Shown: positions 5,367 to 27,659 of the stretch, in pieces
Layout of the letters: every line of letters starts with the position of its first letter
Numbering within the stretch: position 1 is the first letter of the stretch
Source of the DNA: Amphiscolops sp. MND2022
Taxonomy: Eukaryota
Assembly (NCBI GenBank): GCA_964187785.1
Contig: OZ076409.1
Span: forward strand, 6,636,001 to 6,700,000
DNA: 64,000 nt
Reading direction: 5' to 3'
Notes under the pieces: generated by a model
The model's input: only the letters and a program-made list of their open reading frames with translations
Told to the model about the DNA's origin: nothing
The model's database searches: none
Program-made: the position numbers and the translations under genes

Positions 5367-7083
5367 ATTGTAAAACAGCTGATAGACATTTGAACAAATG
5401 ATTCCGATGAAACTATTTTTAAAGAAATAATGGTCATAAATTATTAATTTTTCATCACGAAAATAATCGTTTATTCTCAGGTAGGGTTTAGGGAAAAAAT
5501 TTATTTCACATACCTAAAATAATTCATTATTTTGGCGCCTAATAACTTGGGCGGTGAAGTAGGTGGAAAGCAAATGAATATCTGTGGACGTTTATTTAGC
5601 CCTTCGGAGCTCAATCTTGGGTAATCAAGGCACACCGTCACACCAATGCACTGGGAGATATCGAGTTGTTCTTATCGGTGAACTGTGAATAAAAAATACT
5701 GCGATGCCGAATTGATTTCAATTTTTGTTTTTGAAAATGCTTTGGAATCTACCATTATTTCCATTGTTCATTTAAAAAACAGGGAAATAATCATTATTGT
5801 TATGGAGTCTCTGATGGGGTTGAAAGTTGAAACAGCAGTTACCAATGTTGGTACTGGTTTTGATGGAACGCTGATTCGTTCAACTTGGAATCGAGTTTGA
5901 ACCGCTTTTTTAGGCGAATCACGATCGGAGAAAAAATCACCGAAAGAGTTTGATACAGCACGTTTCGTGATTTTTTTTAGCATTGAAATGCCGGGTTTTT
6001 GCTAGTTAGGAAAACGTTTTAGAAAAAACTCGAAAAATATTCTTGGCGCTTCAGCCACCAAGGTTTTTCGAAAGATCATGCTAAGTAATCGCGAGGAGCT
6101 AGTGTTTGCTATAAAGAGTATAAACAAAGATCTGCCCTGTTTCTTTAAGGGCATGTAAACATTTTTCAGAAAAAAAGTCGCAATAAATATTGTATAGTGC
6201 AAAAACCCAAACGGGAAACTTCTGGCTTAACAATTGTGAACAAACAGAGTGAAATTATTGACAACCCAAAACTCCAAAGAATAATTTCTGAAAAACTACG
6301 TTTTCTCGAAAAAGGCAAAGTGACCATTCAAGCTCGCAAATCGTGTTGTCCTTGTTAAAAAGAAAGACGTTAAGGGTTGTACGCTTTGGAAAAACAGTTG
6401 CATACTGTGGAAATATTGTAAAGCTGGACATCCTAGCTGGTCGGTCATGTGTGAAATATTATTTGGGTTTCAGAAGTGAGTTTTGTACGAGTCGAAATCT
6501 AACCGACAGAAAAATTGCGAAATTGCTTTGATGGACAAAGTTTTTTTGCTAACTTTTTTCTCGTCTTGAACATTTTGAGCCAAAAGTTGTAAATGGTTGA
6601 ATTTTGAGCTGATAGTGGCCATTCGTAGTTTCCACATTTATCATCATTACAGTGCACAGGCAAGCTATTTTGCTGTTTTCGTGGAATCCGGGACACGAAA
6701 ATTGAGAAAAATCGTGGAATCCAGTACAAAATTTCTCTTTGATGTTAAGCGTGTCTTGGATTCCACGACAGTGCTTGTCTTGGATTCCACGCCAATACTG
6801 CTGCTATAATGACACTTTTGCCGCTGCTCTCTGATTGGTCCGCTGATCATTTTGAATTAATATGCGAAAAGTAGTGCATAATATTATGTTTGTTCAGTCT
6901 TCCACTTGAATTTAATTCAAGAAGAGATGCCGCGTTTCGCGTCAAGCATAAATTCGTGGAATCCAGGAAATTTATGATTTCTGCAATCTGATTGGTTCAT
7001 TTCGCAAAACTTACGTTTTTGTGGAATCCGGGACACCGCTGCATGCCGACAGTTCGTACAGCTAAGCATTTGTTACTGGAATC

Positions 7084-7351
7084 TGTACTGACCTACATTA
7101 ATAACCAATAGTATTTAGATGTTTATAGAATGTTCTAGAATGTACATTTATTTGTTATTGAATGATTGTAAATCTCTACTCCTTCAGAGAGAGAAAACTA
7201 ATAATCAGTATTCAGTTGACTTCCTTTTTGTTCTACTACTAACACCTCGGAATAGTTGTAATAAAGAAAGCTAGCTAGCCTGTCTCTCAGCCGCTTTTAG
7301 TAGTTGCGTATAAGACCATCAAAACAATAACCAACCATTAAAAGCAGCACA
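7084..7351 (+). repeat. 5' LTR (268 bp)
   Basis: TGTACTGACC...GCAGCACA. It matches 25228-25495 except at 2 substitutions and contains AATAAA (7260). Confidence 0.97.
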
Positions 7352-7354
7352 ATT

Positions 7355-7368
7355 TGGTGCGACTTGTA
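7355..7368 (+). promoter_or_regulatory. Putative primer-binding site
   Basis: TGGTGCGACTTG starts 3 nt after the 5' LTR. The priming tRNA was not identified. Confidence 0.6.
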
Positions 7369-7637
7369 AAATTTTTCTTTTGCCTTTTCTCCTGGATGAT
7401 TTCTCTTCTCTCAACAATCATACAAATACCACTCTCCATATTTGAAATTCTCTGGAATTGCAGTGAAATCTTTCTAGAATTTCTTGAAAGTTTGGTCTGT
7501 GACTTTCTAAATTTCATCAATAAATACATCATCGTTCGAAACACAATTTCTCCACTACAACAATCAACTTTACTATAACAAATTTTCTTCACTACCGGTT
7601 TATCACGTTTTCCAATACGTTGAAACGGTTTCATTTC

Positions 7638-7864
7638 GGACTGATTTATCCATTGTGACACAGTTCTGTTTTTCTTCTTTTTCCAGACTGATTTATCCAA
7701 AGTGACACAGTTCTGTTCTATATACTGATTTATCACAGCTAATCCGGAAGCTTGTTGAAACAGTTCTTTGATGTTTGTCTGGTTTATCAAGGTTTTCTAA
7801 CACCTTTGACACAGCAACATTTGTCTGGTTTATCAAGGTTTTCTAACACCTTTGACACAGCAAC
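7638..7864. repeat. Tandem repeats in the retroelement leader
   Basis: Two exact 45-bp copies (7774-7818, 7820-7864), plus three related ACTGATTTATC units at 7638-7738, the first two followed by GTGACACAGTTCTGTT. Confidence 0.9.
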
Positions 7865-9102
7865 TTTCTTCAATCCTGCTATCTTGAACGTCAGGTGGAC
7901 TCCTGGTGTAATAGTTGACTGAGTGCATGTCCAACTCCGCTCACCTATAAGCACATACGTCTCAAGATCAACTTCGTGTTGGCAGAAAACCTGGATTTTC
8001 TACTTTTACGCTTCGGATCCCCTTTTTATAAAATTTCCTACCAAAAAATTTCAGAAATAGACTCTGAAAACAAAAAAAAGGCAACCAAGACTAACTACCA
8101 AAAACAACCACGCACTATTCCCTTTCATTCCCTATTGTCGACAAACAATACAAATAAATTCAAAAACTTAAATAATACAAGTAACTTCAAAAAGTTTTCA
8201 ATAACCAACAAAAATAACAATATCAAATAAACTCAAACTTACCTCGAGTACTTCCAATAATAATAATTTTAACATAATCCTACAAAACAATTATTTTAAC
8301 AAAATACCACATACAATTTTCACAACTCTTTTGCTTTAAAACTTAAAATAAGGCATGTAAATAACACAAACACAGTAAAGTTAGTTTTCTACTTTCAGGC
8401 ACCCACAATTCCTATCCCCTCCCGTAAGACTTAGCCAATCAGACAGCCTCACCAGCTTACTCTGATTCTAAGACTGACTAAAAACCTTAGTTAAGTGTAA
8501 ACGTCTTTAAGGAGAATCGAGAGGACACCGAACTACGTTCGAATCTTCAAAATTCTCTGGAAGTAAAAGTAAAAATAAAAGAAACAAAGATCAAACTTTG
8601 ATCGTGATCAGTATTGATCTGACTTTGGATGGTGGACGTTGATTGTTCAGAGTTCCACTCCCTTAGTCTTAAAACACACAACCCACTTAAAATTAAAACA
8701 ATCTTAGTTTTTTCTGGACGTGTCAGTAACCTTATGTTAGACACCTTAAAGTGATCCAGACTTGAAATAACATTTAGTTTCTGTTAGCAATCTTTTGAGG
8801 TTGAATACAGATCCTACTGCACCCGCTTATTTCTTCTCTATCCTAAACCATTAACTTCTCAAATAACTTCAAATTACAATACAACTTATATGAACCCAAA
8901 CCAAGAAATTTATCCTTTCAACTTTTACATTCCACCAATAAGCTCTTTTCAAAACCCTACACCAAACGATTTTGAAAGATTAATTGAACGATATCAACGA
9001 TATTTCTTCTTTATCATAAATCAACAAAGAAATTACCCAAGAGCTCGAACTTAGAAAATGTTTATATAAGACATTTCAACGTTATAACCTTCACATTATA
9101 AC

Positions 9103-9216
9103 ATGTGGGAAAAGGTTACCACAGTAGTACTCATGACAACATACACGTTTTGTGTCTTATTTATAGTTTGTGTTCTTTTTGAAAAAATACTTACGGTGAT
9201 AAGAGACAAACTTTAA
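9103..9216 (+). CDS. 37-aa hydrophobic upstream ORF (possible single-pass peptide)
   Basis: MWEKVTTVVLMTTYTFCVLFIVCVLFEKILTVIRDKL*. The stop lies 2 nt before the gag ATG. Confidence 0.35.
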   Translation: MWEKVTTVVLMTTYTFCVLFIVCVLFEKILTVIRDKL

Positions 9217-9218
9217 AA

Positions 9219-12200
9219 ATGACCACAACAACATTTTTACCTTTTCACACTCCCATCATTAAAAATGCAAAAGTTGTAAAATTAGAACTAAACCTATTTC
9301 TACAAAACATTATTTCACATTATACACAACCACTCCCATTTGAAAATGAACCACACACAATTGAAACAATCCCTCGTATTAGAGAACATTTGGACACATA
9401 CCTTTTCTATATTAGATACAAAGTTTTAACAATCACCGAAGAATACCCAACTTTTCAAATATCCTTTCCTCAACAAAGACTTAATTCATCTCATATATAC
9501 AGAAGAACAATAAACCCAATAAACCTTCAAGTTCCTATTAAACAAGTTTTTCATGCTTTTCTAAATAATGTAAAAGATCACAATTTAGCACACGAAATTC
9601 CAAAATATAGTCCAAATGCACTCGACGATCTTCAACGATACATAGACAATTTCGATGTAGAAATTATTGAAACATTGGTTAATCCTGAAGACAACCCTCA
9701 TCATTGGTTACAAGCTGATATATTACGAATTCAAAATTTCATCTACCATTACTTCAAAGACCTAACATTAAATGACCAAACAATTCCTCAGATCAAAGTA
9801 ACATCTTTATTTCTCAGAAAATACTTCAGATTTAATTATCAACTATTATGGTCTCAACAAGATCAATCTGCTTTTACAGCATTTCCAGATCATTTTACAT
9901 TAGAAGAATGTTTACCATTCATCATCAGTGAACAAAATGAACACCCTTACTTTCATAAACCACAATTACTTACAAAACAAACCTTAGATTACATACGTTT
10001 CGATCCTCTATTAATTACAGAAAATGATCTATTCGCAGATAATAGACCATACCACTATCAACAAAATTCTCAAGATCAACAAAATTTACATTTTAACACT
10101 AACAATTCTACTGAATATGATAACACCGATCAGGAAAACTCAACCCAACAACAAAGTCAACCTGAAAACTATAACGATAATGAGTTTACTACCCAAGAAT
10201 CTACAATCTCAACACATAATCCATCACAAACAGGGACATCAACATCAGTACATACTCACTCCTTTAGAGTTCCCACTAGAGTTGTAAATCAAAGACAAAA
10301 TATACATAGTCCTCAATCTCATTTAGATACATCTCCAAACCGTAATATAACTTTTAACCTTCCACATACAGATGACATACACGATGAAACCCATGATACA
10401 TTACAATATGATACTATCACTACATCTAGTGCTCAGAATACTTCTGCTAATGTTGCATCTCCAACAAGAACTACCTCTGATTCTACAAGATACATTACTC
10501 GACCTAGATATGATCCTCCATCAATCCCCTCCGCCTTTCGCTCAAACAGATCGACCACTTCTAGCAACAATTTTAATGATAATCCTCAAACTTCCAACCG
10601 ATATTACGATCCATTTAATTATAACTTTCATCCTCCATCAAATACAACTAACAATACAAATACCAACCAACACCACTCTCAAATTAATACAATTTCAACA
10701 ACACAAAACCCTTTCATACAATTATCAAATACCAATACGTCCCAGAATATATATTCTCAAAATCAAGGAACCTCGTATACTTCCACTTCTTATTCTAATA
10801 TTACACAGGATTTTCAAAGAAGACTTCATAATCCTCCACGTACACATATCCCAACTGATCCTCTGTATCGAACGCATCCAAATCCAAATCTTAACCCTAA
10901 TCCTAACCCATTACCACCAAATACAATCCAACATATACCTCCACCACTCACACAACAATTCACTTCTTCACCCCAATATCTACCAATGCCACAAGATACC
11001 TTTATAAACATGTCCGCTTCAATACCAGAACCTATGAAACCTTTTGATGGTTTGGACCATTCTTACACCCCCGAAGAATATCTACAACAAGTCGAAGCAA
11101 GATTAACCTTCGCCATAGGTGAAGAACCTCAAAATAATCCTATAAAATACAAATCTTGGCATAATAGACGCATGGCTTACATACAATGTTCATTAATAGG
11201 AACAGCTCTCGCATGGTACACTAACCTCCATATATCATATAAGCAACAATGGAATTCCTTTGTACAACTATTCAAAAAACAATTCTCATCTCAAAAAACT
11301 GCTTACTACGCTCAAGTAGAAGCTATGTCACTCATGAAAAAGGATAATGAAACAGTTCGCCACTTCGCCCTTAGAGTACAACAATTAGTTAAAAAGGGAT
11401 GGTGTAATGAAAATGCAGCTACCATAAATCTCAAAAATAATGAAATCTTTACAAAAGGGTTACCAAAGAAGTTAAAAGATTTTGCCCATAAACGACAAGT
11501 TAAACATGTATCAACATTACTTGAACCTTCAATACCATTTCATACACTTGTTAGACATGTCGATTCTGAAGATATTGCTAATGAAAAAATTAGAACTAAC
11601 GACTTAGCCCTAGAAATAAACAAAGTATCGCTTGAAGATGATACTAACAAAAAAGAATTTGAACATGAAGATCAGATAATGATTACTCAAACTGGAGACC
11701 CAAATAACAAAAGCAAACCAGCGTATAGAAAATATTGTTCCTATTGTCATAAAAATAATCATAGTATTTCAAATTGTTATCAAAAACAACGTGATGACGA
11801 ATACCAGAAATACAATAACCAAAGATCACGAACTCCTCAACAATCCTTTGTACAATATTTTCGCAGTAAACCTAATAATCCTCAGGAAAATCGAAATGAC
11901 AATACAAACTCTTACTCCTCAGATAATGATCGTAATAAAAATAATCAAAACTACTATAATGATAGATACAGAAACAATGATAGATATCGTAGCAATAGTA
12001 GAGAATTTTCGCAAAACAACTATAGATCAAACTCTCGACAAAGATATTATAATCGATCCCGAAGTCCGTATAGATCTCGATTTGATAATTATTATCAAAG
12101 AAGAACTCCATCTAGATCTCCATATAGATCTCCATACAGAAATAACTCAAATTACAGATATAATTCTCGCTCAAGATACAGATCTCGTTCTCAATCACAA

Positions 12201-15200
12201 GGAAACTCCTTTAAACGATATAATTATCCATATAGATCTCCATCAAGACCTAGAGATTTTAGATCAAGATCTAGAACACTCTCAAGAAACAGACAACAAA
12301 ACAGAATAAATCAAGTAGACGTTAAATCTCCAAAAGAAAATGATAGTACAAAATTTGAAATCCACACCTGTCAAATGACTGAAATAGCTAATACAATCAC
12401 CCCTTATAGTTGGTTTTATCCACTATATATTCACGCTTCTGAAACAAATGACAACATATTACCTTCAAAATTAGAAATCTTATTCCTTTTAGATACTGGA
12501 GCTTCCATATCTGTTTTGAATTTACCAACATTTCATGTAATTTCCAAACAATTAAACATCAATGTTCCAACCAACCTCCAAAACAAAAGAGCCAAAACTC
12601 TTACAGTTGCAAACCAAACTGAAGTACCAATAATACATTATATTTCGATGACCTGTTTCACTGAAGTAAATCACAAAACACGATCCTTCAATATCGATTT
12701 TGCCGTAGCAAATATCAAATACAACATTCTTGGAACACCCTTTTTCAAAAAGCACATCCAAAATATTGATTTTCAACAAAACATTATGACGTACACAGAA
12801 CAACATCCAAAGCTTTCAACAAAAACTACATTTTCCACATTTACAGAAAAAGATTACCCATATATTTCTTACATTTATACTATTAAATGTAAGGAACCAA
12901 TTCACTTTAAACCAAGGTCAGGAAAAACCATACATTTTCCAATTAAAAACTATTCAAATCTACATTTTGAACTCGAAGATAATACGAAATTCTACCCAAC
13001 AAACCCATATACATATTTCTTACAAAAATTTAAAAATATCTTTCATTTCTTAGATATGATAGTCAATGAAAAAAGCAAAGACTCATGTGCAACCATAATT
13101 CAAAACTTTACATCTTACCCAGCTACATTACCACGAGGAATTATTGGATATATAGAAATACCTATTACGCAAACAACTCCTCCTCACTACAGAGTTACCG
13201 ATGTAAATTCACTTATTCACTCTGTAATACATGCATATCACCCTGATACCACAACCCCGATTAAACAAAATCCATATACAGATATGAACTTATGTACTAG
13301 GGTAATACCACAATCCCTATTAGAAAGAAACAAGATAGAAATTAACGACAAAACACTTCAACTTCCTATACCTTCTGTTACTGGAAACCTTCGACCTTCA
13401 GATAAATTTCGAAAAGATTTCCCTCCATTACCCTATTCTACAGAAAACCAACAATTCATAAAGAAGTTCAATTTCGAATACTCAGTTTTAACCGATACAG
13501 AATATGTAAATCTCTGCAATATTCTAATTATTAACCAAAATTGTTACGCTAAACATAAAAACGACGTAGGAAAGATTTCTACTCCCTTTCGAATTAGAAT
13601 AAAAGATAATTGTAAACTTCACACACAAAGACCTTCTAAAGTACCTATCCACTATAGAGATAGACTAAATAAACTTTCACTAGAACTCGAAAAATACAAC
13701 ATCATAAAACAAATTGGTTCGACAACAGATGAAAAACATACTATTGGAACAACATTTTTAAACCCTTTAATTATTATCCCAAAAGGAGACGCAATAAAAG
13801 TTGTTTTAGACGCAAGACATTTAAACTCAAACACTAACCAAGAACTTGAATCTTGGCCTATTGAACCTTTAGCTCCTCAATTAGCTAGAGCTAATAAAAA
13901 ATACAAATCAACTATTGATCTAATGTATGCATATGCTCATACACCATTAGATGAAGAAACAATTAAACTTACAGGATTTTCATCCGGTGACAAATTATAC
14001 GCCTTTATCCGTGGATTTTACGGATTAAAAGGACTTCCAAACTTTTTCACAAAACAAATGTCAACTTTCTTTAGATCACTTATAGACAAACGTTCTGCGT
14101 TAGTTTATATAGATGATATTTTATTACTCGCGAATGAAAAACAAGAAATGTTTGAACTTATAAAAGAATTACATACAATAGCATCTCGAGAAAATCTCAA
14201 ACTTGCACCTGAAAAATCGTTCTACATGTTACTCAAAGTAAAATTCCTTGGACATGAAATTGGTAACAACACAATTAAACCAATTCCATCCAAAATTGAA
14301 GCTATTAAAAGACTACCATCCCCAGAAGAAAAGAAAGATGTTATGCAATTTCTTGGCAGTGTTAACTTTTATTCAAAATTCATTGAAAAACTTCATATAA
14401 ACCTTAAACCATTGTATACATTACTACACGATGATGTTAAATTTCAATGGACACCTGAATTAGAAAAACTATTTCAAAATGTTAAAAACGCAATGACAGC
14501 AGACATTGAATTAACAATACCCAACACCACGCATCCATTTTTCATAACAGTAGATGCTTCGTTAGTAGGTTTAGGCGCAGTCTTATTCCAAATGAACGAA
14601 GAAAATAAGATGAAAGTAATCTCTTATAACTCCAGAATTCTCAATACACAAGAACAAAAACTTTCAACTTTAGACAGAGAACTTTTTGCAATAGTTTACG
14701 CATTACAAATATATGAATTTTTGATCATTGGATCTCCTCATCCTATATATCTCTTCACAGATCACAAGCCTTTACTACATTGTTTCGCAAAGAAAGGAAA
14801 TCTTAGTCCTAGATTCTATAGAGCACAAATGCAACTAACCAAATTCTCCAAATTAAAAATCATTCATACCCCTGGAAAAAATTTAACTGTAGCAGATATG
14901 CTTTCAAGAACCTTTACAAAAGAACAGCTACAAGTACACCAATTACGACATAAACAATTACCACCTCAAATAGATTTCTCTATCATGAAAGATAATCAAC
15001 TCAAACCAGTACATTATTTAGTAAAACATGAAGAAATAAAATATAATCAAAAGAATGATTGTCATCCTATCCTTGCTGACTACGGAGACGACCAATTCTC
15101 CATCCGTATAAATAACACAGGAGAAGATATACATATAAAGCCTTTAGATTCCTTCTCTTTTCAATCTATTGTTCCATTCGAATCAAAATATAAAAAGCCT

Positions 15201-17251
15201 ACAAATAAACAAGCAAAATCTCTTTTACAACAATCGACAATTCTTATTGATACTGACAATCTTGGTGATGAAGATGAAATAACACCATCAAATAATATCC
15301 AACAACAAAACTCGAACATAGTAAAAGAATACACCCTTGCTATACAATATCCTACCAAATCTGACTATTGTAAACAACAAGTTCCATTTTTGATCCATCC
15401 TTTTTCAAATACAAAAAATATTTTAATTACTTCTTCCTACCAGAAGATACACAAATAACCATTGAAACAATAAAAGCTCAACAAAATCAAGATACTGTTT
15501 TACAAAAGGTTTACCAATGGATACTTTATAATGAAAGACCCTTACAAATAGACCCAACAATTGCAGCTAACTCTTTCTTATTAGTATATTACAAACTCTT
15601 CAACCAATTATATTTTAATCATGATACAAAAATTATCCACATAGATTATCCTAATCTTCACGATTCCAACCCGAATCAAAGAGACAAAATATGTCTACCA
15701 TTTAAACTTTTCCACACAGCTTTTAACAAACTTCATGCTCATGGACATTCAGGAATAAAAATATCCATCAAAGCTTTCAACCAATTTTACTTCATACCGT
15801 ACCTGAATAAATGGATGTCAATATTCATCCATGATTGCATTGAATGCCAACAAAATAAACATATTAACCAAAAATTACAAACTGCATCTATACAAACCTT
15901 CTCAGAAATTGCTTCATATTTTAATTACCGAATATCAATGGATACAAAAGGACCTATAAACCCACCATCAGATCAAAATTCGTACATTCACGTTATAGTA
16001 GACGCTTTTAGTCACTTTGTAGTAACAGTACCTATGAAACAAAATAATGCTCAAAACGCTGTTAACTCATTACTACATCATTGGATAACAAAATTTGGAC
16101 CTCCTGTATACCTAGTTACCGACCGTGGAACAGAATATATTAATTCAGAATTTGCAAATCTTTGTACCACAATGGGAATTAGACATTCACCAAGAACTCC
16201 TTATGCACCATGGACAAATGGTTTAGTTGAAAATCAAAACAGAAATCTTGGAACTCATCTCAGACTTTTCTTACATAACACTCCAGAAAATTGGTCAACT
16301 CAAGTCCATATGTATGCTTATGCACATAATTCACAACCACTTTCTGAATTAAACTTATCTCCATATGAAATAGTATTCCATACTATACCCAGAATTCCAA
16401 TCAACTTTGAACTCAATCTCCAAAGAGATACATATAGAAATTGTTCTTCTCAATATTGTCAAGAATTACCACTTCATACACACTATGACAAATCAAATCT
16501 AAACCCTTTCTTTCATAAAATTTTATCTAAACCAATTCCACAATGGATCTTGGCTACTGAAACTGCTTTGATACAGATATACCATACGGTATATGAAAAC
16601 ACAAAAAGAAAGATTAATTCCTATGCTTATTTTAACAAAACATATCACAATCCAAGACCCTTAGATATTGGTAAATTTGTACTAAAAAGAAATTTTCTCC
16701 ATGTTCATTTTTCCGATAAATTAAAACCTCTCAGAATTGGCCCATTCAAAATTATTAACAAACTCTCCGATATAACATATGAAATTGTTAATCAAGATGG
16801 TTATACATCGCACATACATAGAAATCATTTAATTCCTTTTCATCCAAAAGAACCAGTTATTTTCCCTTTCATACAACAATATAACCCTCATTTATTTAAT
16901 GACTGTCATTCAAATACAAACGATCAAATAATTAACTCTGATGAAGACAAATTTACAGACGAAGAACAATTTCCTTCCACAACATTTAATAAAGAAACGG
17001 ATATACCATCCACGATTGACTTACAACCAGAACCATTTAACCAATATTCTTCATTTCCATCTAAACAAAAAGAACAAATTCCTCAAAATACCTCCATGGA
17101 TAACCAATCAGATATTCATGATTATGATAATTTTATTAATCCCCGAAGGCACTCCTATAATAGATACAATTTCCGCCCACAACCAAGAAAAGACTACCGA
17201 CTCTTCCTTGGTGAAAAGGATATAATTTCACTTTCTCAAAAATCCTGCTAA
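9219..17251 (+). CDS. Gag-Pol polyprotein (about 2680 aa) with a single frameshift near 15387-15391
   Basis: Capsid-like region from PMKPFDG; zinc knuckle CSYCHKNNHSISNC (11736); protease LLDTGAS (12492) and ILG; RT YIDD (14106); RNase H TVDAS (14553); integrase HAHGH..CIEC, D-D-E (MDTKGP, TDRG, GLVE) and GPF motif. The second frame is open from 15392 to 17251. Confidence 0.95.
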
Positions 17252-17420
17252 AATACGGAATACAGAAAGAAATACACACAAAGAAAGTTTGAAAGAAAGA
17301 AAAAGTTTGAAGCTTAATGCGAAAATAAATGAAATTTATTTCACGAATGAGAATAAAAGAAAGAAATCTTAATTGATATAAAACTATAACTATTTTACAA
17401 GCTGAAACTAACTATCATAA

Positions 17421-18890
17421 CACAACGATTTCAAAATTGATAGACATATTCACTCACCATCATCAACTACAAATAATTCTTCTTCTAGTTCAACACATTC
17501 ACTCCAAAGATTACCTGAATATACAGCATATTTAAACTCAGATACAGACATACTGGATTCCTCATCCTCAAATCCCAGTCCATCCGCTCCATATACTCCT
17601 GATAGAGTACCAATAACACCCACTAATACACATATAACCCAAACTCAACCACTAATATTAACAACTCAATCACAACCTATTTCACGAAATCTAACATTTT
17701 TAGAAACAAATTCACCACTTTCTGACTCTAATGATGAAACACCTACAATACCAAATACACAAGATACTTCAGATATTTTGAATAGACCTCCTCTTCCACC
17801 GATTACTACCACTCGTTCTATTCATATCCCTGATCCTAGCTCAGTCCTACAATACATAAATTCTTGTCCACACAAAGTACCAACTGCAACAAAAACAAAA
17901 AGAAAAACTCCTTTACCTACATTACCACAAAATCTTGATTTACCATCATCAAGTAATATCCCAATAACATTTTTACCAGAACCTTTATTGAAATCACCAA
18001 CGAAAAAATCACAACAATACCCAACTCCTTCACCATCGGAACTAAGTTCCTTCACATTTTCTCAAATATATCCCAAGCTTGAATTACAACGTGTACATTC
18101 AACAACTACCTCTTCATTAACAGATTTATATCATAAAGATAAAGACTCTGACTCAACTGCTAGTACTAGAGTACCAAGACATAATTAAAACCTTCGATCT
18201 CAACAACAAAGAGATTCTCAAGAATTACAATCCTTAACTAGTTCAAGTACAAACTCAAGACTACTTCGACAACACGCCCAACCCAGATTGGACACTTCTT
18301 CTCTTTCCTCATCTCAGCCCACTATACCATCTTCTCTATCACTACCATTTCAAATCACATCAGGATTTGAAACAGCCTCTCTTCTTTCTGAAGAGCCAGC
18401 AACTATATCAGATAGCGCAGCTAATTTTTCACGAGTTTACTCACCTAGTTCAATAGCATCAAACTCTTCTATACAATTACCTGAATATTTTTTAGAAGAA
18501 TTCTCAAGACCTCCATCGCCAAATCCTCACGAATATCCTATTCGTGTTAACTCAAAAATTGTTCACACGCTTGACGAAGATCCTCGATACACGGTATTAC
18601 CTGCAAGATTTATAAACAATAGTTCACTCTCAACTCAAAGAAAACAAAGAGAACTACGAAGATTACAAGAACAACAACACACATTAAAATTTGAAGTAGA
18701 AGTCACATTCAACTCGTTAGGACCTCATCCATTCTCACTTTCAACAAGAGTAGCACATAAAACAACCCCATCACCATTCATTGTTACCTCCATTTCCTAC
18801 CTTTGTGACGCAGATTTACCTGAGATTAGAACAGGACATATAAACTTTTTTAATCCCTACTCAGGACTCAATTATGGATCAATATTTTAA
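17421..18890 (+). CDS. Accessory Ser/Thr/Pro-rich ORF between integrase and env, with one internal TAA (18186)
   Basis: ORFs 17778-18188 and 18288-18890 share a frame that is open from 17421 apart from one stop. It has no ATG and a more ordered C-terminal segment of about 100 aa. Confidence 0.6.
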
Positions 18891-18892
18891 CC

Positions 18893-21532
18893 ATGAACCA
18901 AATCACCTTTACCTTTTATTTAATATATATAATACAAGTTGTTAAATACACGTATATAATAAATATAGTTCACTCTTTAGTTCACCCTTCAACTGTTCCC
19001 AAAGTTGACACCACCAATTCCGAAAATCATATTTCAGACCAAGATCCTAACATTTTAAACTTAATGGTATCTCATTATGATTGTGCAAAACAAAATAACT
19101 TAAGACAATTCAGTTTATTAAATGTAGAACCATGTAAACAAGCACCCTCAGATATACAACACACAAAAACCCAAGCAACAGTTTATGTTAGAGCAAAAGC
19201 CAAAAGAATAAAAGCCTTTAAATGTGAAGCATATATAAAGACTGAGAATGTCTGGTGTTCACAAACATTCACATCTAGTAGACGATATGATCGTTTACAA
19301 TGGGGACAAAACACATTAGAACTTCCAAAAATATTGGACCCTATTGAATGCAAAAATATGATCAGATATTTAAACGCGACTGATAGCGAAGAATTAAACA
19401 ACTACAATATACAAAGCTCTTTCTCATTGTTCGACGATAGTAATTATCAAAACACAATTGAACGAATTCAGACACCATTTAGAGTAAAAAAATCAAATAC
19501 ATGGCATATTGGAACCTTCGTATTTGACGAAAATTATCCTGATTGGATAGTTAATGTTACACAAAATACATACTCTAGATGTCGATCAGACCGCGAACAT
19601 TTAATTACCCGACAAAGTTGGAAACTTAGAATTGTTAACACCGCAATAGATTATGACGATAAAAACAATCAATTATTACATGACGGACACATATTACCAT
19701 GTTATCATTCAGACGGATTTTGTAAACCAACGACCAAAACTCCATATACATTAACATGGTTTGATGAAAAATTTTGCCTCATATTTCAACTTCAAGAATT
19801 CATTGGTAGAATGACACGAATCAAAGATAGATATTGGATGGAAACCGATACCTTCATTGAAACTTCAAACATCACACAAAAACTTCAAACCGAAGGAATA
19901 CAAGGAACAAAATACCCTAATATAAAAACACCACAATCAAAAGTAAGCAATCCAAGCCTTTCTCGATTTGAAATATACCCAATTGCACAAACCTTCTGTG
20001 GAAAACCTGAACCATTACTTTCAACACAATATGATGACATCTTTGTTACATACTTAGATGGTTTTGATATGAATACAGGATTACCAAAACCACACTCAAT
20101 AATTGACCAAACAATTAGTGGAAATATAAAACATGATGATTCAAACAAATGGTATATATTCCCTGCATTGAATATATCAAACAATTTCGCCACTTTAGAC
20201 TATGATGCCCACATTAATACAAAGATTGATTTCACAATAAATCATGTATTTAAATCCATGACAGTACAAGAACTAAACACTCTTCATACAATATGTGAAC
20301 TAAAAAGAACTCAACTGTTAACAATACTAGCAATGTCAGTTAAAAATCCTCAATTAGCCGGTTTTCTTTTAACTGGAAATCGTAGTAACTGTCTCTACGT
20401 TGAAGGATCTACAGCATGGCTGTATGATTGCCCTCATTTTATATCACCACTATACAAGGCAGATAAAAGCTTTGATAGAATTCCTATACACTACAGAGAA
20501 ACGATAATGTATGTTGACCCAATAACAAGACAAACTTTTAACTACGCAACACCAATTGAATGTGGAAATAACCCACAAAATATAATAGAATTAGATCCAG
20601 ATTCCAACGACGGAGATTTTTATGTGTTAACACCAGAACCACTCAAACGAGAAGCACCACAAATGTTTAAACCTACCCAAATTAAAACAACAATCACTCC
20701 TAATACATTTACCGCCCAAGATGCCGGTATATACTCAAATGCAGAATTAGATCATTTCTGGAATAGAGTATTATTTGCTAAACATTCAGACACAACTCTT
20801 CAATTACTTGGAAAATCATTAAGCTATGATTTCATTTCAATGCATAATGAAAAACACTCATACTCAGGACATAATCCCTATAATCATTCAGGGATTGGAG
20901 TACATGACCACTTGTTGAATCTTTTACCACTTTTTAACCCTGACTGGTTCAGTCAAGCATTCATTAATTTCTTTGGATACCCATGTTATGTCTTAACCCA
21001 ATGTGGAGTTTATTTTTCAACATTCCTTTTCATTAGAGAAGTTTTAACATTTTTACTCAAATTCTACAGAACAATTAGCCAAAAATATAATCTCGAAAGC
21101 AACATTTCCATTTTGAGTTCAATAGCCCATGGATTTTTTAATATAGTTACATCGGAAATGGTAACCGATTTAAATAATACAGGAAAACGAAAACGGATAT
21201 ATACTAAACACAAAATTACAACAAGTGAAAATGATAATATCCTATTGCCGGAAAAAGAATTAAACAATAAACGAAGACACTCTGATACTGACTCCCCTCA
21301 CTTACCTCCTAAATATTCCAGTAAGAATTCAACATTTCAATCACCGCAAAAGACACACCCAACTAATGTAAACGATATTAATTCTCAGGACTATGACCCA
21401 ATAATGTCAAATGTAATAGTGGTACCGGAAAGTCCTGCTAAAGTCTTTATAAAATTTAATCCCTCCTTACTGAAAAGCAATAATTTAGAAAACAAATTAA
21501 CCTCAGAAAAAATTCACAAAATTATCAACTAA
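18893..21532 (+). CDS. env: Envelope glycoprotein, 879 aa, resembling chuvirus-type/class III fusion proteins
   Basis: N-terminal hydrophobic signal; Cys-rich ectodomain (HYDC..FSLLNVEPC..AFKC..VWC..ECK; ICELKRTQLLTILAM..NPQLAGFLLTG; YVDPITR..PIEC); N-glycosylation sequons (NAT, NVT, NIT, NIS); C-terminal TM segment and cytoplasmic tail. Confidence 0.88.
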   Translation: MNQITFTFYLIYIIQVVKYTYIINIVHSLVHPSTVPKVDTTNSENHISDQDPNILNLMVSHYDCAKQNNLRQFSLLNVEPCKQAPSDIQHTKTQATVYVRAKAKRIKAFKCEAYIKTENVWCSQTFTSSRRYDRLQWGQNTLELPKILDPIECKNMIRYLNATDSEELNNYNIQSSFSLFDDSNYQNTIERIQTPFRVKKSNTWHIGTFVFDENYPDWIVNVTQNTYSRCRSDREHLITRQSWKLRIVNTAIDYDDKNNQLLHDGHILPCYHSDGFCKPTTKTPYTLTWFDEKFCLIFQLQEFIGRMTRIKDRYWMETDTFIETSNITQKLQTEGIQGTKYPNIKTPQSKVSNPSLSRFEIYPIAQTFCGKPEPLLSTQYDDIFVTYLDGFDMNTGLPKPHSIIDQTISGNIKHDDSNKWYIFPALNISNNFATLDYDAHINTKIDFTINHVFKSMTVQELNTLHTICELKRTQLLTILAMSVKNPQLAGFLLTGNRSNCLYVEGSTAWLYDCPHFISPLYKADKSFDRIPIHYRETIMYVDPITRQTFNYATPIECGNNPQNIIELDPDSNDGDFYVLTPEPLKREAPQMFKPTQIKTTITPNTFTAQDAGIYSNAELDHFWNRVLFAKHSDTTLQLLGKSLSYDFISMHNEKHSYSGHNPYNHSGIGVHDHLLNLLPLFNPDWFSQAFINFFGYPCYVLTQCGVYFSTFLFIREVLTFLLKFYRTISQKYNLESNISILSSIAHGFFNIVTSEMVTDLNNTGKRKRIYTKHKITTSENDNILLPEKELNNKRRHSDTDSPHLPPKYSSKNSTFQSPQKTHPTNVNDINSQDYDPIMSNVIVVPESPAKVFIKFNPSLLKSNNLENKLTSEKIHKIIN

Positions 21533-21884
21533 ATTCTTCTCAGTTTTAACTTTCATTCACACCCAAATTCTCACTCGGACCGGTCTCTCTTTTTCAACTC
21601 AACTCAACTCTCAACCAGAAGACTTCAACTGGATTTTCAGTCCATCTAAACGACCGAAATCACAGAAATTTCTATTCCTGGAATAGATGCCACTGTGATT
21701 GTTGATGTTTTCAACCCATCATTGACCCAGTATTCCCATATTGTAAGTACAATTTAAACTTTAATTTTAACAAACAATTTAATGGATAGAAAAGACATAA
21801 CAAAATTTTTCCTTAAAATTAGAAATAATGTAATCAAATGTTATATTATTATTTTAGCTCTACAAAAACACGCAAGTTTAAATA

Positions 21885-22587
21885 ATGGAAACCTTGCCCG
21901 AAATTGATGTAGTTAACTCTAATCCCTCTGAATTGCTTGCAACCCCTTTGAATATAACTATTCAACAAAATGTTAACGAAGATAATAACTCTTCCTCCAA
22001 CTCTCAAGACCCTATAGAAAATATCCCTATTGAACAAGTAGATCATGTTAACACAAGATCTCAAAAAAAAGTACCCAGATATAACCGCAGATAAACCTTT
22101 TATGGAATCTGGCGCTTGCCCTCCTTTCATAAAACCAATCAAACAAGATGAAGATAGAGATTGTGAATTAGTTCCTATTCTCTCGTCAAAACAATTCACA
22201 TTTTAATCTCAGTTAACCTCGTTATACATGATTCCTTCAAAATACAAATTCATCATCAGAGAATTTAAAAATGATTATCATACATCAATTGATTCAAAAT
22301 TGATTACCCCATATGATTGGTAGTTAAACAATAAAGTGAAAATTTTCTCACTTCAATACAACTTCCTCGGACCATCTCCATATGATCTTCGAACAGAAGA
22401 AAATGATGCAAATTTTTTGCCTTACCAAATCAAAAAGGCCCACCATATGACTTATCAAAAGATTCTTCAATATAAAGAGCCCGATAATTATATATTCTTC
22501 AACTCCAAATATACATCGCCATTCACTTTCAACTCAGAATATTTAATAGATCATACCAAAAACAAAAGGAAAACTTCGAAACTATGA
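21885..22587 (+). pseudogene. Disrupted accessory ORF 3' of env
   Basis: ORFs 21885-22094 and 22336-22587 have the element's codon style and are linked by coding-like sequence with stops and frameshifts. Confidence 0.4.
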
Positions 22588-22629
22588 CCCGCTGAAACAA
22601 AGTTTTCTCTTCCTTCCAAATGATAACCC

Positions 22630-23176
22630 AAAAAGACCAATCATTGTACCACAAGAATACCTCATTTTAAACGACGATTCGTTACTACAAGAAGATATAC
22701 CTCAACATATATCTGATCCTCTTCCTCCACTTCAACATATAGCCTCTCAACCATTGCGAGACTGTGAAAAGTCTTATTTTCACGCAATGATCAAAAAGGG
22801 ATATTCAAATAATGAATTAATTTTCATTACTTCCCACCTGCTTTCACTTCTTACAAATAGAAATCACAAAGAATATAAAAAGGCAAAACAAGAATCGCCT
22901 AAGAAAACCAAAAATGATATTCCTCAACCACAAAGTTTTCGCCCAACAGATGAATTACAGAAATATACAGAAATCCTGAATATCATAAAACCGTATCATC
23001 ATCCAAACCGAGATATTCTTATAACAATCGCTGAAATCGTAAATACCCTTGAACAAGCTCGAAGCATAACACAAAACATCGTATTTGATACGACAAGAAT
23101 TAGCCAATCAGCTTTGTGCATTCGCACATCCTTAGACGAATTCAACTACACTATTGAAAAAATGCATCGATCTTAA
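22630..23176 (+). CDS. Accessory ORF 3' of env, function unknown
   Basis: The frame is open upstream of 22754 (KRPIIVPQEY...). The C-terminus looks helical/coiled-coil. Confidence 0.45.
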
Positions 23177-23583
23177 CTGGTAATTATGGGATAATAGCTT
23201 TAAAGTTGTTAACACTTATCACTTAATCTCTTAACAACCTGTCAAAATTAATTGAGTCTACACGCATATGCCTGCTATGCATGATTATAATACATGCTTG
23301 ATGTTAAAATACACTTTTAAAATGAAATAACATAAAAATTTCAATCACAACATAAAAATTTTTCAACGATTTTTCTCAATTGCTCCTCCTTTTAATGGAC
23401 CAATTTCGACAAATAAATACTTATATGAAAGATATTAAAATACCCTTTAAAAGACTTCCAAAATACAACAACTTAATTCTTAAAATTAAAAAGTTATAAC
23501 ATCACAAAATTCAATAAAAAAATGTCAACTACGAAATTCTATTTTCAAAGGAACTTTATTGTAAACAAACTAATCAATTTTAG

Positions 23584-24176
23584 GTGAATATCGTCACAAC
23601 TGCTTCTTCAGCATTCCTTCCTCCTCTCAGGCCACCCATTCAAGAAGAATTCCGAAGTATCTTCTACAGCTTTCAACGAAATTTTCTCATTTCTTCACTA
23701 TGACAACTATTCACTCTGGCGACATTGACTGCCCGATAGCTCCATTTCTTTCAATCTCTTCAGCTCGATTGCGATCCTTGATCCTGAAAAAGCATTTAAC
23801 GACATTAAATGCGCAGCTTCGAACAGACAAAAAGGCAGACCCACATCTTACAAGGATGATATTGCTTAATATGTTCCAAATATTCCAAATAACCAGAATA
23901 AATTTCGACCAATATCTCCATATTCATAAACATCCCGACACTTATTCAACCCAACGAGACGCCACTACCCAAACAGAACATACTACCATCAAACCCAAGC
24001 GTTTAGTACGAACTCTATCCAATAGAATGCGTTCCGAAATGGAAAAACAACGTTTAAATTCTTATTGGCCCTCAGATGACAATAATGACACTGACGAAGA
24101 CCTTCAAAAAGATCCCCCAGAAGCACTTTTAGACGATAACTATCCGCACAAAACATATACTTACGTTTCCTTCTAA
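23584..24176 (+). CDS. Accessory ORF/exon 3' of env, function unknown
   Basis: 158-aa ATG ORF at 23700. Its frame is open back to a splice-acceptor-like CTAATCAATTTTAG|G at 23583. The C-terminus is acidic. Confidence 0.5.
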
Positions 24177-25213
24177 TATCAACAGACGCCACCAACAGCA
24201 CCCGTCTACTCCCATCTTCGAATTCCACATCTTCAACGAGCAACAGATCAGCACCCATCTTCAACTTCATCGCCGCCCAACAGTTGCCCATCTTCATTCA
24301 TCTGCTGACCCTTCTTCATCCATCTTCCAATCTTCAATCGTCACCCACATGCTCAGCCAAAGATGATCAATAATTAATAATAAAGAAAACTCAAAGAAAA
24401 ACATTGTGCATGATAACATTTCGAAAAGTTTCAAACTCATCTAATATTTCATAGAATTCAAACTCTCACCTAAATTATTCATTATGTACTTAATATTTCA
24501 AATTTCATCCCCACCCACATTTATTTGCCCAAAATCTTTTATTCACACCTGTACCGATATTTATTTGCTTTATTTTTAAAGAATAATTAGTAATAATTAT
24601 TATTTTTTGGTGCTATCTTACCCAACAAAAAATTCACAAATACTATCAACAAATCTTTTCAAATTTCAACAAAACCAGCTCAAAATCAGATCAAGCATAT
24701 TTTTCAGATCACACTCGAATAATGACAGACCCAAATTCTCAAAGTTTTCAACGTTTGTTACATAACAAACCCGCCAAAGTTAATTACAACCTGAAATCTT
24801 TTCAAACGAATTTCACGTTCGATAAAAATTTTTTCTCAACAATATTATTTCTTTGACTCTTTGACCTCTAACTCGTATTATAATTGCTCACGTTTGTTCA
24901 ATGCGAAGTTCATCCAAAACTTCAACAGAAGCATAAAATTGAGCATCTACCAGTTCAAAAAACAAGCCGACGAAAGCATAGTGAAAAAGAACACTTTGAC
25001 GTTTTTGAACTGTAGTCGCACCTACGAGGTGTCAATCAAAATTTTGACAATTCGAGGTACACCAATGAGTCGAACTTACACCACTTTTCACGAGACTTAT
25101 GCCAATCATCCATCAAATGAAAAATGTTAACTAGCTGAAACGCTAAGAACATTTAAACAAAAAATTTTTCTTCATTTCAATTAATGATGCTACTTTAAAA
25201 TATTATTTTATTT

Positions 25214-25227
25214 AAAACCGGGATGGA
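25214..25227 (+). promoter_or_regulatory. Polypurine tract
   Basis: AAAACCGGGATGGA directly abuts the 3' LTR. Confidence 0.6.
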
Positions 25228-25495
25228 TGTACTGACCTACATTAATAACCAATAGTATTTAGATGTTTATAGAATGTTCTAGAATGTACATTTATTTGTT
25301 ATTGAATGATTGTAAATCTCTACTCCTTCAGAGAGAGAAAACTAATAATCAGTATTCAGTTGACTTCCTTTTTGTTCTACTACTAACACCTCGGAATAGT
25401 TGTAATAAAGAAAGCTAGCTAGCCTGTCTCTCAGCCGCTTTTAGTAGATGCGTATTAGACCATCAAAACAATAACCAACCATTAAAAGCAGCACA
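25228..25495 (+). repeat. 3' LTR (268 bp)
   Basis: Direct repeat of 7084-7351. Confidence 0.97.
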
Positions 25496-27659
25496 AAGCC
25501 ACGACTAAATCCGTGGAATCCGGGACAAATGACGTAATTTGCCAATTTTGCAAGGTTAAAGGTATGGTCGTGGAATCCGAGATATTGAAAGCACTGTTGC
25601 GCTTTGAGCAAATAAGGCTTGCCTGTGCACTCTAATGGTGGCACACTTTTGAAACAGATATGTTTGTAAACTAGATAAAAATCAAGAATTTTCAGTTTCG
25701 GGTATTTTCCAAAAATATTTGATTTTGGAATTTATCTTTTGTTGCTTCCTCTAAAATCAATACTTTCTTTTTTCAAGTTTTTCAAAGCACCCTAGTCGAG
25801 ACTGTTGGAATTTTTAACATGCTGTAAGCATGCATGCAGGGTTACATTTCATAAAATCTAGAATTTTCGGTATGAGTCTGGTGGTATATCTTGAAAGATT
25901 ACACCGTAGTTTACTCTATTGCAATTAAAATTAATATTTTTCACTATGTCGTCGACACCGCCACGTAGTGTTCATACTTTGTGCTGCCAACTACTCGTTT
26001 GAGATAATCACCGCTTCTCCATTAGCACACTCAACATATTAAATTGCAGCTCACAACATGACGGAAGTTAATTTGCATTAAAAGGGTGGTGAAACTGATA
26101 GTAACTTGGTTGCGTTCAAATTTGAACTGTTTTTCAAGGAAACGTGCAAAACTGCAAGCTCATAACTTATGACCTTGCAGTTTTGCACGTTTCCTTGAAA
26201 AACAGCACGTTTCCTTGAAAATTTGAAATTGCCGCCAAACCTAATGTTCTTGTTTGCAGCTTGACATTTGCATTTCAAGCAGCTTGATAAAAACCGAGTA
26301 CAGCAGGGAATTCTTTTTGCGTAAAAGATTCCGTAAGAGTTTTAGAAAATCATAATGAAAATTTGACAAGTTCAAAGTTCATGCGAAGCATTCAAGTAAT
26401 TGCAAGAAGGGCAGGCAAACTCATACAAGTAGATACCAAAAAGCTAAAGACAGTCGTCGGTTTAGGTAACGAAAACTTTTACAGCGCGAAATCTTTTTTA
26501 AATATAGTCGTTATACAAAAAAATCTCAGAAGCAAAAGTCACTCAAAGTTGAATGAGCAATACGAGGATATTTTTTGTTTTGAAATCAAAGAAAAAAGTT
26601 TTATCACATATCATATATTGAGGCTTTCGGTAATTTTTGCACTTTATTCAGCAATCACTCAGAAACTACTAGTCAGAATAAAAACCTCCGAATTTTTTTA
26701 TGGCTATGACACCGTTCTTTAACTTTCGTTATTAAGAGTCATTCTGAAATTGCTTCTTAAAAACTGAATAGCGAAAAACACTTGTAATTGTTTCAAATCA
26801 ATCTTTTACAGAGTGAAAATTGACGGTATCGTATTTTGTGATCATGTTGCGGTACAAAGAGACCCGAAAGTACAAAGTTTGTCTCAAACGCTTTTTGTTA
26901 AGAACAGCTGTTCTCGAGTTATTTATTGCATTATGAATTTCAAAAAGTTGGAAACTAGCGTTAAAAAAGTTGAAATACCCCTGTAGTTTCAGATGGGTTT
27001 GCTCCAAAGATTTTTGAGGCTACTGATTACGTAGGCATTTCTTGCGCTTTGAGATTTGAAATCAGGTGCCTTAAGTTTTTTGTGACCTTAGTGTAGCAAT
27101 CTACTTTTCGAGGACACAAACTTGTTCGATTCAACCAATCAAAACGGATTCATCTGAAACCAAACACAGGCACATATGCTTCACAAACATTGCTTGGCAA
27201 ATAACTATGACTCTAGGCTATATCTTCAAATCATAAAGACACAAGTTCGTTTAGTTGAGTCAACGTCGCTTCGGGTTTTGTACATTCTTCGTTCAACTCT
27301 AACTGATGTAATTCTGACATGAAACTTCTCAACAAACGCCTGAAACTCCAAAGTTTCAATGTCTGTTGAAAGCCTCGTGAAGTGTTAATTTTTGAAGAAA
27401 GTGACCGAAAAAGAAAACCTTGAAACTTTTAAAAAATGACAGGGAACAAAGTTTAGTCTCAGTTTACACAAACTTTCTAAAAGATGTAATTGAATGTAAT
27501 TCAGGGCAAGATATCTTTGATTTCTTCATTTCGAATCAATAGGTTCAATTGAGGAGGTTTCTATGGAATTCATCAGTTTTTGCACTTCTTTTAACTTTAA
27601 CAAGAACTACTTGATAGCGTGCGTAATCACTGGGGGTTGCTTAACCATCATTCCTTTAA

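Follow-up and report, generated by a model that had tools for sequence, protein, structure and literature searches.

Our analysis concerns a window of 64,000 nucleotides of genomic DNA from Amphiscolops sp. MND2022 (assembly GCA_964187785.1, contig OZ076409.1, positions 6,636,001 to 6,700,000 of the forward strand), in which an 18.4-kb, env-bearing long terminal repeat (LTR) element of the Ty3/Gypsy type occupies positions 7084-25495 on the plus strand. We consider it highly probable that this element is one decayed copy of a young, abundant family of Ty3/Gypsy endogenous retroviruses with the order LTR-leader-gag-pol-X-env-Y-Z-LTR, in which X, Y and Z are extra genes that would be expressed in the manner proposed below. 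A first-pass annotation, made from the letters alone, had described an 18.4-kb element bounded by 268-bp LTRs with two mismatches, and the repeat alignment bears this out: direct repeats at 7084-7352 and 25228-25496 (268/269 bp) are 99% identical with a start-to-start spacing of 18,144 bp, and alignment with the flanks resolves a 5' LTR (7084..7351, 268 bp, TG...CA ends, AATAAA at 7260) and a 3' LTR (25228..25495) that differ by two mismatches. The plus-strand stop-to-stop frames listed in that annotation were likewise all recovered at their positions. The element is flanked by a 4-bp target-site duplication (AATC at 7080..7083 and AAGC at 25496..25499) whose 3' copy carries one mismatch against the 5' copy, while six of eight other copies with readable ends have perfect 4-bp duplications; LTRs with TG...CA ends and a target duplication of 4-6 bp, as is characteristic of Ty3/Gypsy elements (Metaviridae), are both present.

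Three nucleotides past the 5' LTR lies a candidate primer-binding site, TGGTGCGACTTG, a 12-mer starting with TGG (7355..7366, plus strand) that is identical in all eight copies read. The matching primer tRNA was sought in several places: a genome search with the 10-mer was uninformative (2,462 matches against 1,849 for the control), none was found in three small loci around clustered 10-mer matches, the window holds no tRNA gene, and a tRNA end complementary to the candidate site is absent from the tRNA list in the available part of PMC13524379. Together with the LTR end, the site (7322-7380) is among the few non-coding stretches that can be aligned with a sister family in the same genome, described below. 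The leader (7352..9218, 1,867 nt) has the 1.9-kb length given in the earlier description and is poor in ATG (10 against 25.4 expected); its frame at 7919-8230 is not conserved among copies and has no synonymous-bias signal. Within the leader a 46-bp unit is tandemly duplicated (7774-7864) and may be a regulatory repeat. At the opposite end of the element, a 3' untranslated region of about 1 kb (24177..25219) leads into a short purine run, GGGATGGA, which adjoins the 3' LTR and is our candidate polypurine tract (25220..25227). Between the LTRs the plus strand is strongly skewed toward C over G (GC skew from -0.22 to -0.40; adjacent flanks, about ±0.06), and Rfam gave no match in window positions 7000-25600.

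The host assembly comprises 1.07 Gb, and the best 40 scored LTR matches in it all stand at 99-100% identity, many of them paired about 18.1 kb apart. Nine paired-LTR copies, chosen as top LTR matches and not at random, were taken whole. All nine are collinear with the window element over 18.4 kb at 95.2-98.8% identity, with copy-specific exceptions (a 560-nt deletion in one, a 182-nt deletion in another, and a 1.36-kb deletion with a 4-kb duplication in a third). Because the same layout recurs in 9/9 of them, the leader and the stretches between pol and env and after env characterize the family; they are not insertions specific to this locus, and the first-pass annotation, which had counted them as parts of the element, is borne out. 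Counts of 27-mers across the assembly gave 1,235 for the junction of the 5' LTR with the primer site, 1,209 for the junction of the polypurine tract with the 3' LTR and 2,474 for the middle of the LTR (reversed controls, 0), which implies some 1,200 copies amounting to about 22 Mb, or roughly 2% of the assembly, if most are full length. Junction pairs among those listed on contig C1 are mostly 17.8-18.2 kb apart, which suggests that the copies are indeed mostly full length. Within each of the eight other copies with readable ends, the two LTRs differ from each other at 0-5 of 268 positions, and the family is young, very abundant and recently amplified.

Two further observations concern the LTRs. 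Solo LTRs are almost absent, the mid-LTR count being compared here with the 1,235 plus 1,209 LTRs joined to internal sequence; this is unusual at such a copy number and fits either a very young age or the shortness of a 268-bp LTR. Between copies (L031-L049), LTRs are 98-100% identical and internal regions 95-99%, and in three copies of a 95-96% subfamily the LTR pairs differ at 0-2 of 268 positions, a contrast that points to recombination between subfamilies or to tighter constraint on the LTR. Deleted, 'spliced' proviruses were looked for among 30 LTR-flank loci and rejected, as only truncated or nested copies were present.

Selection on the frames was assessed by comparing each copy base by base with the window as reference, no consensus being built, and by separating variants shared by at least two copies, which come mostly from lineages that kept copying, from private ones, which mostly arose after insertion. 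Since changes private to the window are counted as shared under this scheme, the resulting ratios of non-synonymous to synonymous change (dN/dS) are biased toward 1; unless stated otherwise, the values below refer to shared variants. Off-frame controls gave dN/dS of 0.52-3.8, private variants in the true frames gave 0.85-1.14 except for Z (0.45), and no shared stop codon was found in any true frame when the nine copies were compared with the window.

The coding part opens with a plus-strand stop-to-stop frame of 2,091 codons (9183-15458) that encodes Gag, protease (PR), reverse transcriptase (RT) and RNase H, and in the family gag-pol is a single frame of about 2,690 codons. The Gag N-terminal extension (9219..11180, about 650 codons) belongs to no Pfam family, and its dN/dS is 0.38, the other two frames giving 0.75 and 1.03; the Gag of the sister family aligns from residue 27, with 43% identity over residues 27-1244, so that the extension is included. 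The Gag core (11181..12480; dN/dS 0.18) matches Pfam PF03732 (E 1.9e-7), with Retrotrans_gag at about 11181-11397, a CCHC knuckle at 11736-11777 and an Arg/Ser/Tyr-rich tail. PR, RT and RNase H follow in one frame with gag (12481..15458; dN/dS 0.17), marked by DTGA at 12492-12503, YIDD at 14106-14117 and RNase H at about 14448-14847, and the 2,091-codon frame carries the Pfam domains RVT_1, RT_RNaseH and RT_RNaseH_2. Integrase (IN), with a low-complexity tail, lies at 15374..17251 (dN/dS 0.25); it has an HHCC motif at 15713-15847, a catalytic core at about 15923-16211 and a Ty3/Tf2-type C-terminal SH3-like domain, and matches Pfam rve, Integrase_H2C2 and Integrase_p58_C. Gag-pol had been annotated as one long frame with a single lesion, which is confirmed: a one-base frameshift of the window copy falls within the overlap of the RNase H and integrase frames (15374..15458), where 8/9 other copies differ by one base in length and read continuously through gag-pol-IN.

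Among solved structures, the best relative of RT-RNase H is Ty3 RT (4OL8, E 3.2e-37), followed by an 'Enzymatic polyprotein' chain (8R0S, E 2.4e-25) and foamy virus Pol (E 9.5e-18), and the best relative of integrase is Ty3 Gag-Pol (7Q5B, E 9.7e-18). Pfam assigns Ty3/Tf2-type domains to pol and no BEL/Pao family at E <= 0.01, and the PR-RT-RNase H-IN order is that of Ty3/Gypsy elements. By these sequence comparisons the element belongs to the Ty3/Gypsy type (Metaviridae), given Ty3 as the best match of both RT and IN, the domain order, the TG...CA ends and the 4-bp duplications. Two observations on this region stand apart. In a sister-family copy a single in-frame TAA (L054:7312-7314) splits gag-protease from the rest of pol at about window gag-pol residue 1245, and could be either a lesion of that copy or a read-through site. 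By eye, a Tyr-Asn/Lys-Leu/Phe-Arg motif with basic residues occurs both at the integrase C-terminus and inside X in the two families (window about 17150-17250 and 18150-18200; sister L050 about 1650-1720 and 2400-2450).

The env gene (18893..21532) comprises 858 codons in the family, its end lying at 21469 in other copies, and is contained here in a stop-to-stop frame of 892 codons (18854-21532). It was annotated as intact, which holds insofar as the frame is open, but the family stop at 21467-21469, present in 8/9 other copies, has been lost in the window, which extends the frame by 21 codons. The product starts at its own ATG, has a hydrophobic, signal-like N-terminal segment, 16 Cys and nine N-x-S/T sites; toward its C-terminus a hydrophobic stretch (about residues 700-730) precedes a cytoplasmic tail some 130 residues long. 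Residues 447-657 match Pfam PF24664, 'Monjiviricetes_fusion' (viral fusion glycoprotein, chuvirus-like; E 1.1e-22). This is the only Pfam family on env, with no match to an F-protein family, and on this profile evidence env is a member of the chuvirus-like glycoprotein family PF24664. Its homologs number 67 at 48-97% identity, and 60 of these carry PF24664; in viral contigs, 103 pattern matches yielded none confirmed as an env relative. Constraint on env is seen in shared variants (dN/dS 0.27; 23 synonymous against 22 non-synonymous, where about 22% synonymous would be expected, p 1e-5), and 39 of the 53 best-scoring genome matches are free of stops.

Besides gag, pol and env, three further genes are found. 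The POL-ENV gap of 1,641 nt holds ORF X (17421..18890, plus strand; ORF, open reading frame), which begins 170 nt past the end of the integrase frame and stops 2 nt short of the env ATG; it has 489 codons but no ATG, and consists of a Ser/Thr/Pro-rich N-terminal part and a conserved C-terminal part. An extra ORF between pol and env had been predicted and is present, but as a single 489-codon family frame that is split in the window by an in-frame stop at 18186-18188 (frames 17421-18188 and 18189-18890), where 9/9 other copies have a sense codon. Its two halves give dN/dS of 0.28 and 0.29 (synonymous excess p 0.002), 124 homologs extend down to 35% identity, and 71 of the 87 best-scoring genome matches are stop-free. 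ORF Y (21886..23176) has 430 codons in the family; the window copy contains at least two frame breaks and two in-frame stops, and only 22550-23176, a 208-codon frame corresponding to the C-terminal half, is still open. In copy L032 an ATG is the second codon of the Y frame. The C-terminal half has dN/dS 0.17 (synonymous excess p 6e-4), 261 homologs of Y are recorded, the full-length ones among them reaching down to 69% identity, and 85 of its 98 best-scoring genome matches are free of stops. ORF Z (23697..24176), with about 159 codons from its first ATG at 23697 (stop-to-stop 23574-24176), combines a basic center with an acidic C-terminus and has dN/dS 0.17 over 23574-24173, with 18 synonymous against 10 non-synonymous shared variants (p 4e-6). 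Of the expectation of at least three ORFs after env, Y (through its C-terminal half) and Z are conserved, but the frame at 24795-25130 is not, having dN/dS 1.39 and being broken in 8/9 other copies. The frames of X, Y and Z are thus kept open in the family, their shared variants being mostly synonymous and their private ones looking neutral, and the idea of conserved accessory-type genes gains a signature of purifying selection in all three.

Sequence comparison gives little indication of what these proteins do. In Pfam, X, Z and the Gag N-terminal part match no family, and Y has a single sub-threshold match (E 0.076); Protein Atlas gave no usable match for Y or the X C-terminal part; an exhaustive profile search with Y returned 318 proteins at E <= 0.001, mostly short nameless fragments, with no functional lead; and an AlphaFold model of Y from a 16-row alignment has no usable fold (pLDDT 31). 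Paralogy among the Gag N-terminal part, X, Y and Z was considered and rejected, as BLASTP found no match at E <= 1. We consider an accessory or regulatory role to be the most likely one for X, Y and Z. The window copy itself is a defective provirus, with pol frameshifted, X carrying a stop and Y broken in several places.

Two of the env homologs represent sister families in the same genome, each with at least 50 near-identical copies. One sister copy (L054 and L050, C2:101946219-101964199) spans at least 18 kb and shares the gene order of the window family: LTR, at most about 1.2 kb, gag, pol, X (418 codons, no Met), env (a 927-codon frame), Y (449) and a 179-codon frame. Protein identities to the window family are 64% for pol, 59% for env, 42% for Y (E 4e-96) and 41% for X (E 1e-63). 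After the frame at the Z position, a 37-nt unit occurs about four to five times in the sister copy (L050:8415-8599) and may be a regulatory repeat. First-look candidates for env-like sequences in the host genome number about 11,500-12,500, and the sister families are abundant as well. At locus L004 (C9:21351538-21354806) only 14 nt of internal sequence come after an LTR of the window family, and a sister-family env lies at a distance of 4.4 kb (C9:21357722-21360424), an arrangement that is probably a nested insertion.

The proposed life cycle would begin with the LTR driving a full-length RNA that serves both as genome and as gag-pol mRNA, and the downstream genes would be expressed from spliced subgenomic RNAs by analogy with Drosophila gypsy, whose env is made from a spliced subgenomic mRNA and mediates infection (PMC4276936). 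X presents a particular case. It lacks an ATG in the window family and in the sister family, and lineages at 35-42% identity lack one likewise, save for one internal Met in one sequence, where about five Met per protein would be expected at the Met frequency of the other genes (1.0-1.5%). Counting all frames, the X region contains 3 ATG against 13.5 expected, an about four-fold depletion with none in frame; the sister X region contains 3 against 11.3 expected, compared with 58 against 37 in env. From the lack of an ATG and the depletion of the region we infer that translation of X most probably begins either in an upstream exon or at a non-AUG codon. A single mRNA would then serve both X and env, with ribosomes scanning through the AUG-poor X region to the env AUG. 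Y would use its own ATG behind two candidate signals. The first is a 37-nt non-coding block (21676..21712) with TGGAATAG behind a pyrimidine-rich run; it shares 89% identity with the sister family, and nothing else in the four regions compared (IN-X, env-Y, Y-Z and Z-LTR) could be aligned. We regard this block as a candidate splice acceptor or start region of a Y mRNA. The second is a candidate 115-nt intron (21743..21857) in the presumed Y 5' untranslated region, running from GTAAGT to TTATTTTAG (21849-21857); the GTAAGT at 21743 is the only one on the plus strand of the element, and the sister family has no counterpart of the candidate intron at the corresponding position. Spread probably includes cell-to-cell passage, from soma to germline, in addition to intracellular retrotransposition, as the selection on env in the spreading lineage makes such passage probable.

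X could alternatively be part of Pol or Env, joined to either by frameshifting, read-through or splicing as a C-terminal extension of integrase or a cytoplasmic N-terminal extension of Env. The near-absence of Met from X across lineages and its close fit between the integrase stop and the env ATG would accord with this, as would the low-complexity, Ser/Thr/Pro-rich character that the integrase tail and the start of X share by eye. The frame relations tell otherwise: going from IN to X shifts the frame by +1 in the window family and by -1 in the sister, and going from X to env shifts it by -1 and +1, respectively. This inconstancy speaks against programmed frameshifting, and on this ground frameshift fusions of both IN-X and X-env were rejected. 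In-frame stops lie between IN and X in both families, and env has its own ATG and signal-like segment. A spliced X fusion may occur, but we judge the fusion explanation as a whole to be improbable, and favor X as a gene of its own.

An equally improbable account, in our estimation, is that the element is a purely intracellular retrotransposon in which env and the extra genes are functionless passengers. A copy number near 1,200 is typical of germline retrotransposon bursts, and just 3/9 of the other copies examined have an open env (about 2.6 kb). This figure belongs to a series, however, in which an open gag-pol-IN (about 8 kb) is found in 0/9, X (about 1.5 kb) in 5/9, Y (about 1.3 kb) in 5/9 and Z (about 0.5 kb) in 7/9; intactness falls with ORF length, as neutral decay after insertion predicts. 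The low dN/dS of env in shared variants and the lack of any shared stop also speak against passengers, since this constraint indicates that the lineages that kept copying had a working env, and the sister env (P0004) is stop-free in 49 of its 50 best matches. That the extra length consists of locus-specific or nested insertions and chance frames, the real element being an ordinary three-ORF env-bearing Gypsy, can be dismissed as very unlikely: an A-rich, G-poor plus strand does lengthen chance frames, the frames at 7919-8230 and 24795-25130 are indeed not conserved, and nested insertions occur in this genome (probably at locus L004), yet all nine other copies have the additional regions in the same order, the sister family keeps X-env-Y at 41-64% protein identity, shared variants in X, Y and Z are biased toward synonymous change only in the proposed frames, and distinct 4-bp target duplications on different chromosomes exclude one segmental duplication as the origin of the copies.

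Several points nonetheless weigh against the interpretation of a family of endogenous retroviruses with a fusion-type env and three expressed extra genes. Searched against the PDB by sequence, env gave no match, and as a profile its best hit was unrelated (E 0.23); its AlphaFold model, from a 17-row alignment, has pLDDT 30 and no usable fold, so that a class III fold for env is putative. The dN/dS values of X, Y and Z come from small counts (16-28 shared variants each) in nine top-LTR copies read against the window, and the matches counted as stop-free were ranked by score, which favors intact copies. The case for translation of X, a frame without a start codon, is made from conservation alone, and the proposed splice sites are pattern matches, to be taken as leads and not as findings. 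Z and the sister frame at its position are barely detectable as related (E 0.04). Finally, gag-pol-IN is open in 0/10 copies examined, so that current activity is hypothetical.

Among LTR retroelements with a Jingchuvirales-type glycoprotein as env, Dezordi and colleagues are said to have described in 2020 mosquito BEL/Pao elements, Anakin among them, that had captured a chuvirus glycoprotein. Anakin resembles the window element in this respect and differs in being BEL/Pao, whereas the window RT and IN are closest to Ty3 and no BEL/Pao domain was found. A 2023 follow-up (PMC10084718) reports, in its accessible part, Gypsy fragments beside such glycoproteins with no clear capture by Gypsy. [quoted passage not shown] Their gB-type elements have GAG-POL-ENV, a Ty3/Gypsy pol, a Chuviridae-related env and many near-identical copies per genome, and in this sense the window family is an env-carrying Ty3/gypsy with, by sequence family, a putatively gB-type ENV. 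Unlike them, as far as the available text describes them, it has a 1,641-nt POL-ENV gap occupied by a conserved gene, a gag-env span of 12.2 kb and two post-env genes. The survey was limited to a POL-ENV gap of <=1,000 nt and a region of <=10 kb and, by its available description, left out other ORF arrangements, prefilters that would probably have excluded the window family. The word 'accessory' is absent from the main text of PMC13524379, and six peptides and two tRNA-end strings were not found in its supplement, a weak negative because cells of more than 400 characters were only partly covered. A large, recent, env-bearing Ty3/Gypsy element is therefore what the first-pass annotation had recognized, but the lineage, which it took to be possibly undescribed, varies a kind already known, since Gypsy pol with a chuvirus/gB-like env has been published (PMC13524379). 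In the literature searched, with repeat libraries outside the search, no Gypsy family with this gene set was found. On the sequence evidence, the kind (an env-bearing Gypsy with a class III-type env) thus appears to be already known, and what appears new is the 18-kb genome, the extended Gag and the three conserved extra genes, one of them AUG-less.

Errantivirus elements are about 7-8 kb long and have three ORFs. Gypsy, ZAM and Idefix resemble the window element as Gypsy-type elements with env as third gene (PMC4276936) and differ in their baculovirus F-like (class I) env, where the window env is PF24664 and has no F-type match. Great length and extra coding capacity have precedents: Burro/GYPSM1 of planarians and Ogre of plants are Gypsy-type elements far above 10 kb with additional coding capacity, and Arkhipova & Yushenova 2019 (PMC6431247), in the part available, give Burro as >30 kb and mention additional ORFs located in the pol-env interval or downstream of env. 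An env-like region and accessory ORFs are present in Burro too (PMC6431247), but there env sits between gag and pol, in frame, as part of a polyprotein of about 4,900 residues with recognizable host-like domains, and the internal region reaches 25 kb; in the window element env is a separate frame after integrase, the internal region measures 17.9 kb and the extra genes match no known family. Most of the size of Ogre is LTR, according to the same source. LTR elements of bdelloid rotifers (Rodriguez et al. 2017, PMC5408684) also have ORFs beyond gag, pol and env, and their ORF3s are, as described there, mostly enzymes (GDSL lipase, DEDDy exonuclease) or an F-type env. The window family differs in having, besides env, three genes that match no known family and are conserved between sister families.

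The resemblance to a complex retrovirus claimed in the first-pass annotation concerns layout and does not extend to descent. Foamy viruses, deltaretroviruses and the 17-kb foamy-like endogenous retroviruses of fish are alike in layout only, sharing post-env genes, a long leader and an ORF that lacks a start codon. HTLV tax/rex obtain an AUG through splicing, and HIV vpu-env depends on leaky scanning. The window RT is nearer to Ty3 (E 3e-37) than to foamy virus Pol (1e-17), which places it in a Ty3-like and not a retroviral RT lineage, outside Retroviridae, and no sequence similarity to retroviral accessory proteins was found. A further step, which we advance only tentatively from sequence features and consider less likely to hold than to fail, would be to see in this family and its sister families a clade of Metaviridae that independently evolved the style of a complex retrovirus, with spliced X, Y and Z regulators, an AUG-less X and continuing, possibly env-mediated spread.

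Other features of the window are of minor relevance to the element. A second Gypsy remnant at 38146-42268 (plus strand) is heavily frameshifted, with PR, RT, RNase H and integrase pieces in several frames; kinship with the main element, at most very distant, was rejected, the best tblastn match being IN at E 0.013. Non-LTR retrotransposon endonuclease domains (Exo_endo_phos_2, E 5e-8 and 1e-7) lie on the minus strand at 58166-58693 and 61860-62618. Two plus-strand frames are possible host exons, namely a SET-domain frame at 757-1725 (E 2.5e-8) and a weak ARM-repeat-like frame at 29131-29712 that falls below the Pfam cut-off.

Published surveys have aimed at three-gene elements of <10 kb, and the window family would fall outside such filters. 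It shows that a successful lineage, accounting for about 2% of a 1-Gb genome, can hold three additional conserved genes along with a Gag of much increased length. The AUG-free gene before env offers a compact and testable case of translational control, and X, Y and Z, if our interpretation is correct, would be new proteins for the study of RNA export, escape from silencing and cell-to-cell transfer. Should they prove to be regulators or antagonists of host defense, they would show how retrovirus-like complexity arises outside Retroviridae, and if the comparison with complex retroviruses holds, the family would represent an invertebrate, convergent counterpart of foamy-virus or HTLV-type gene regulation.

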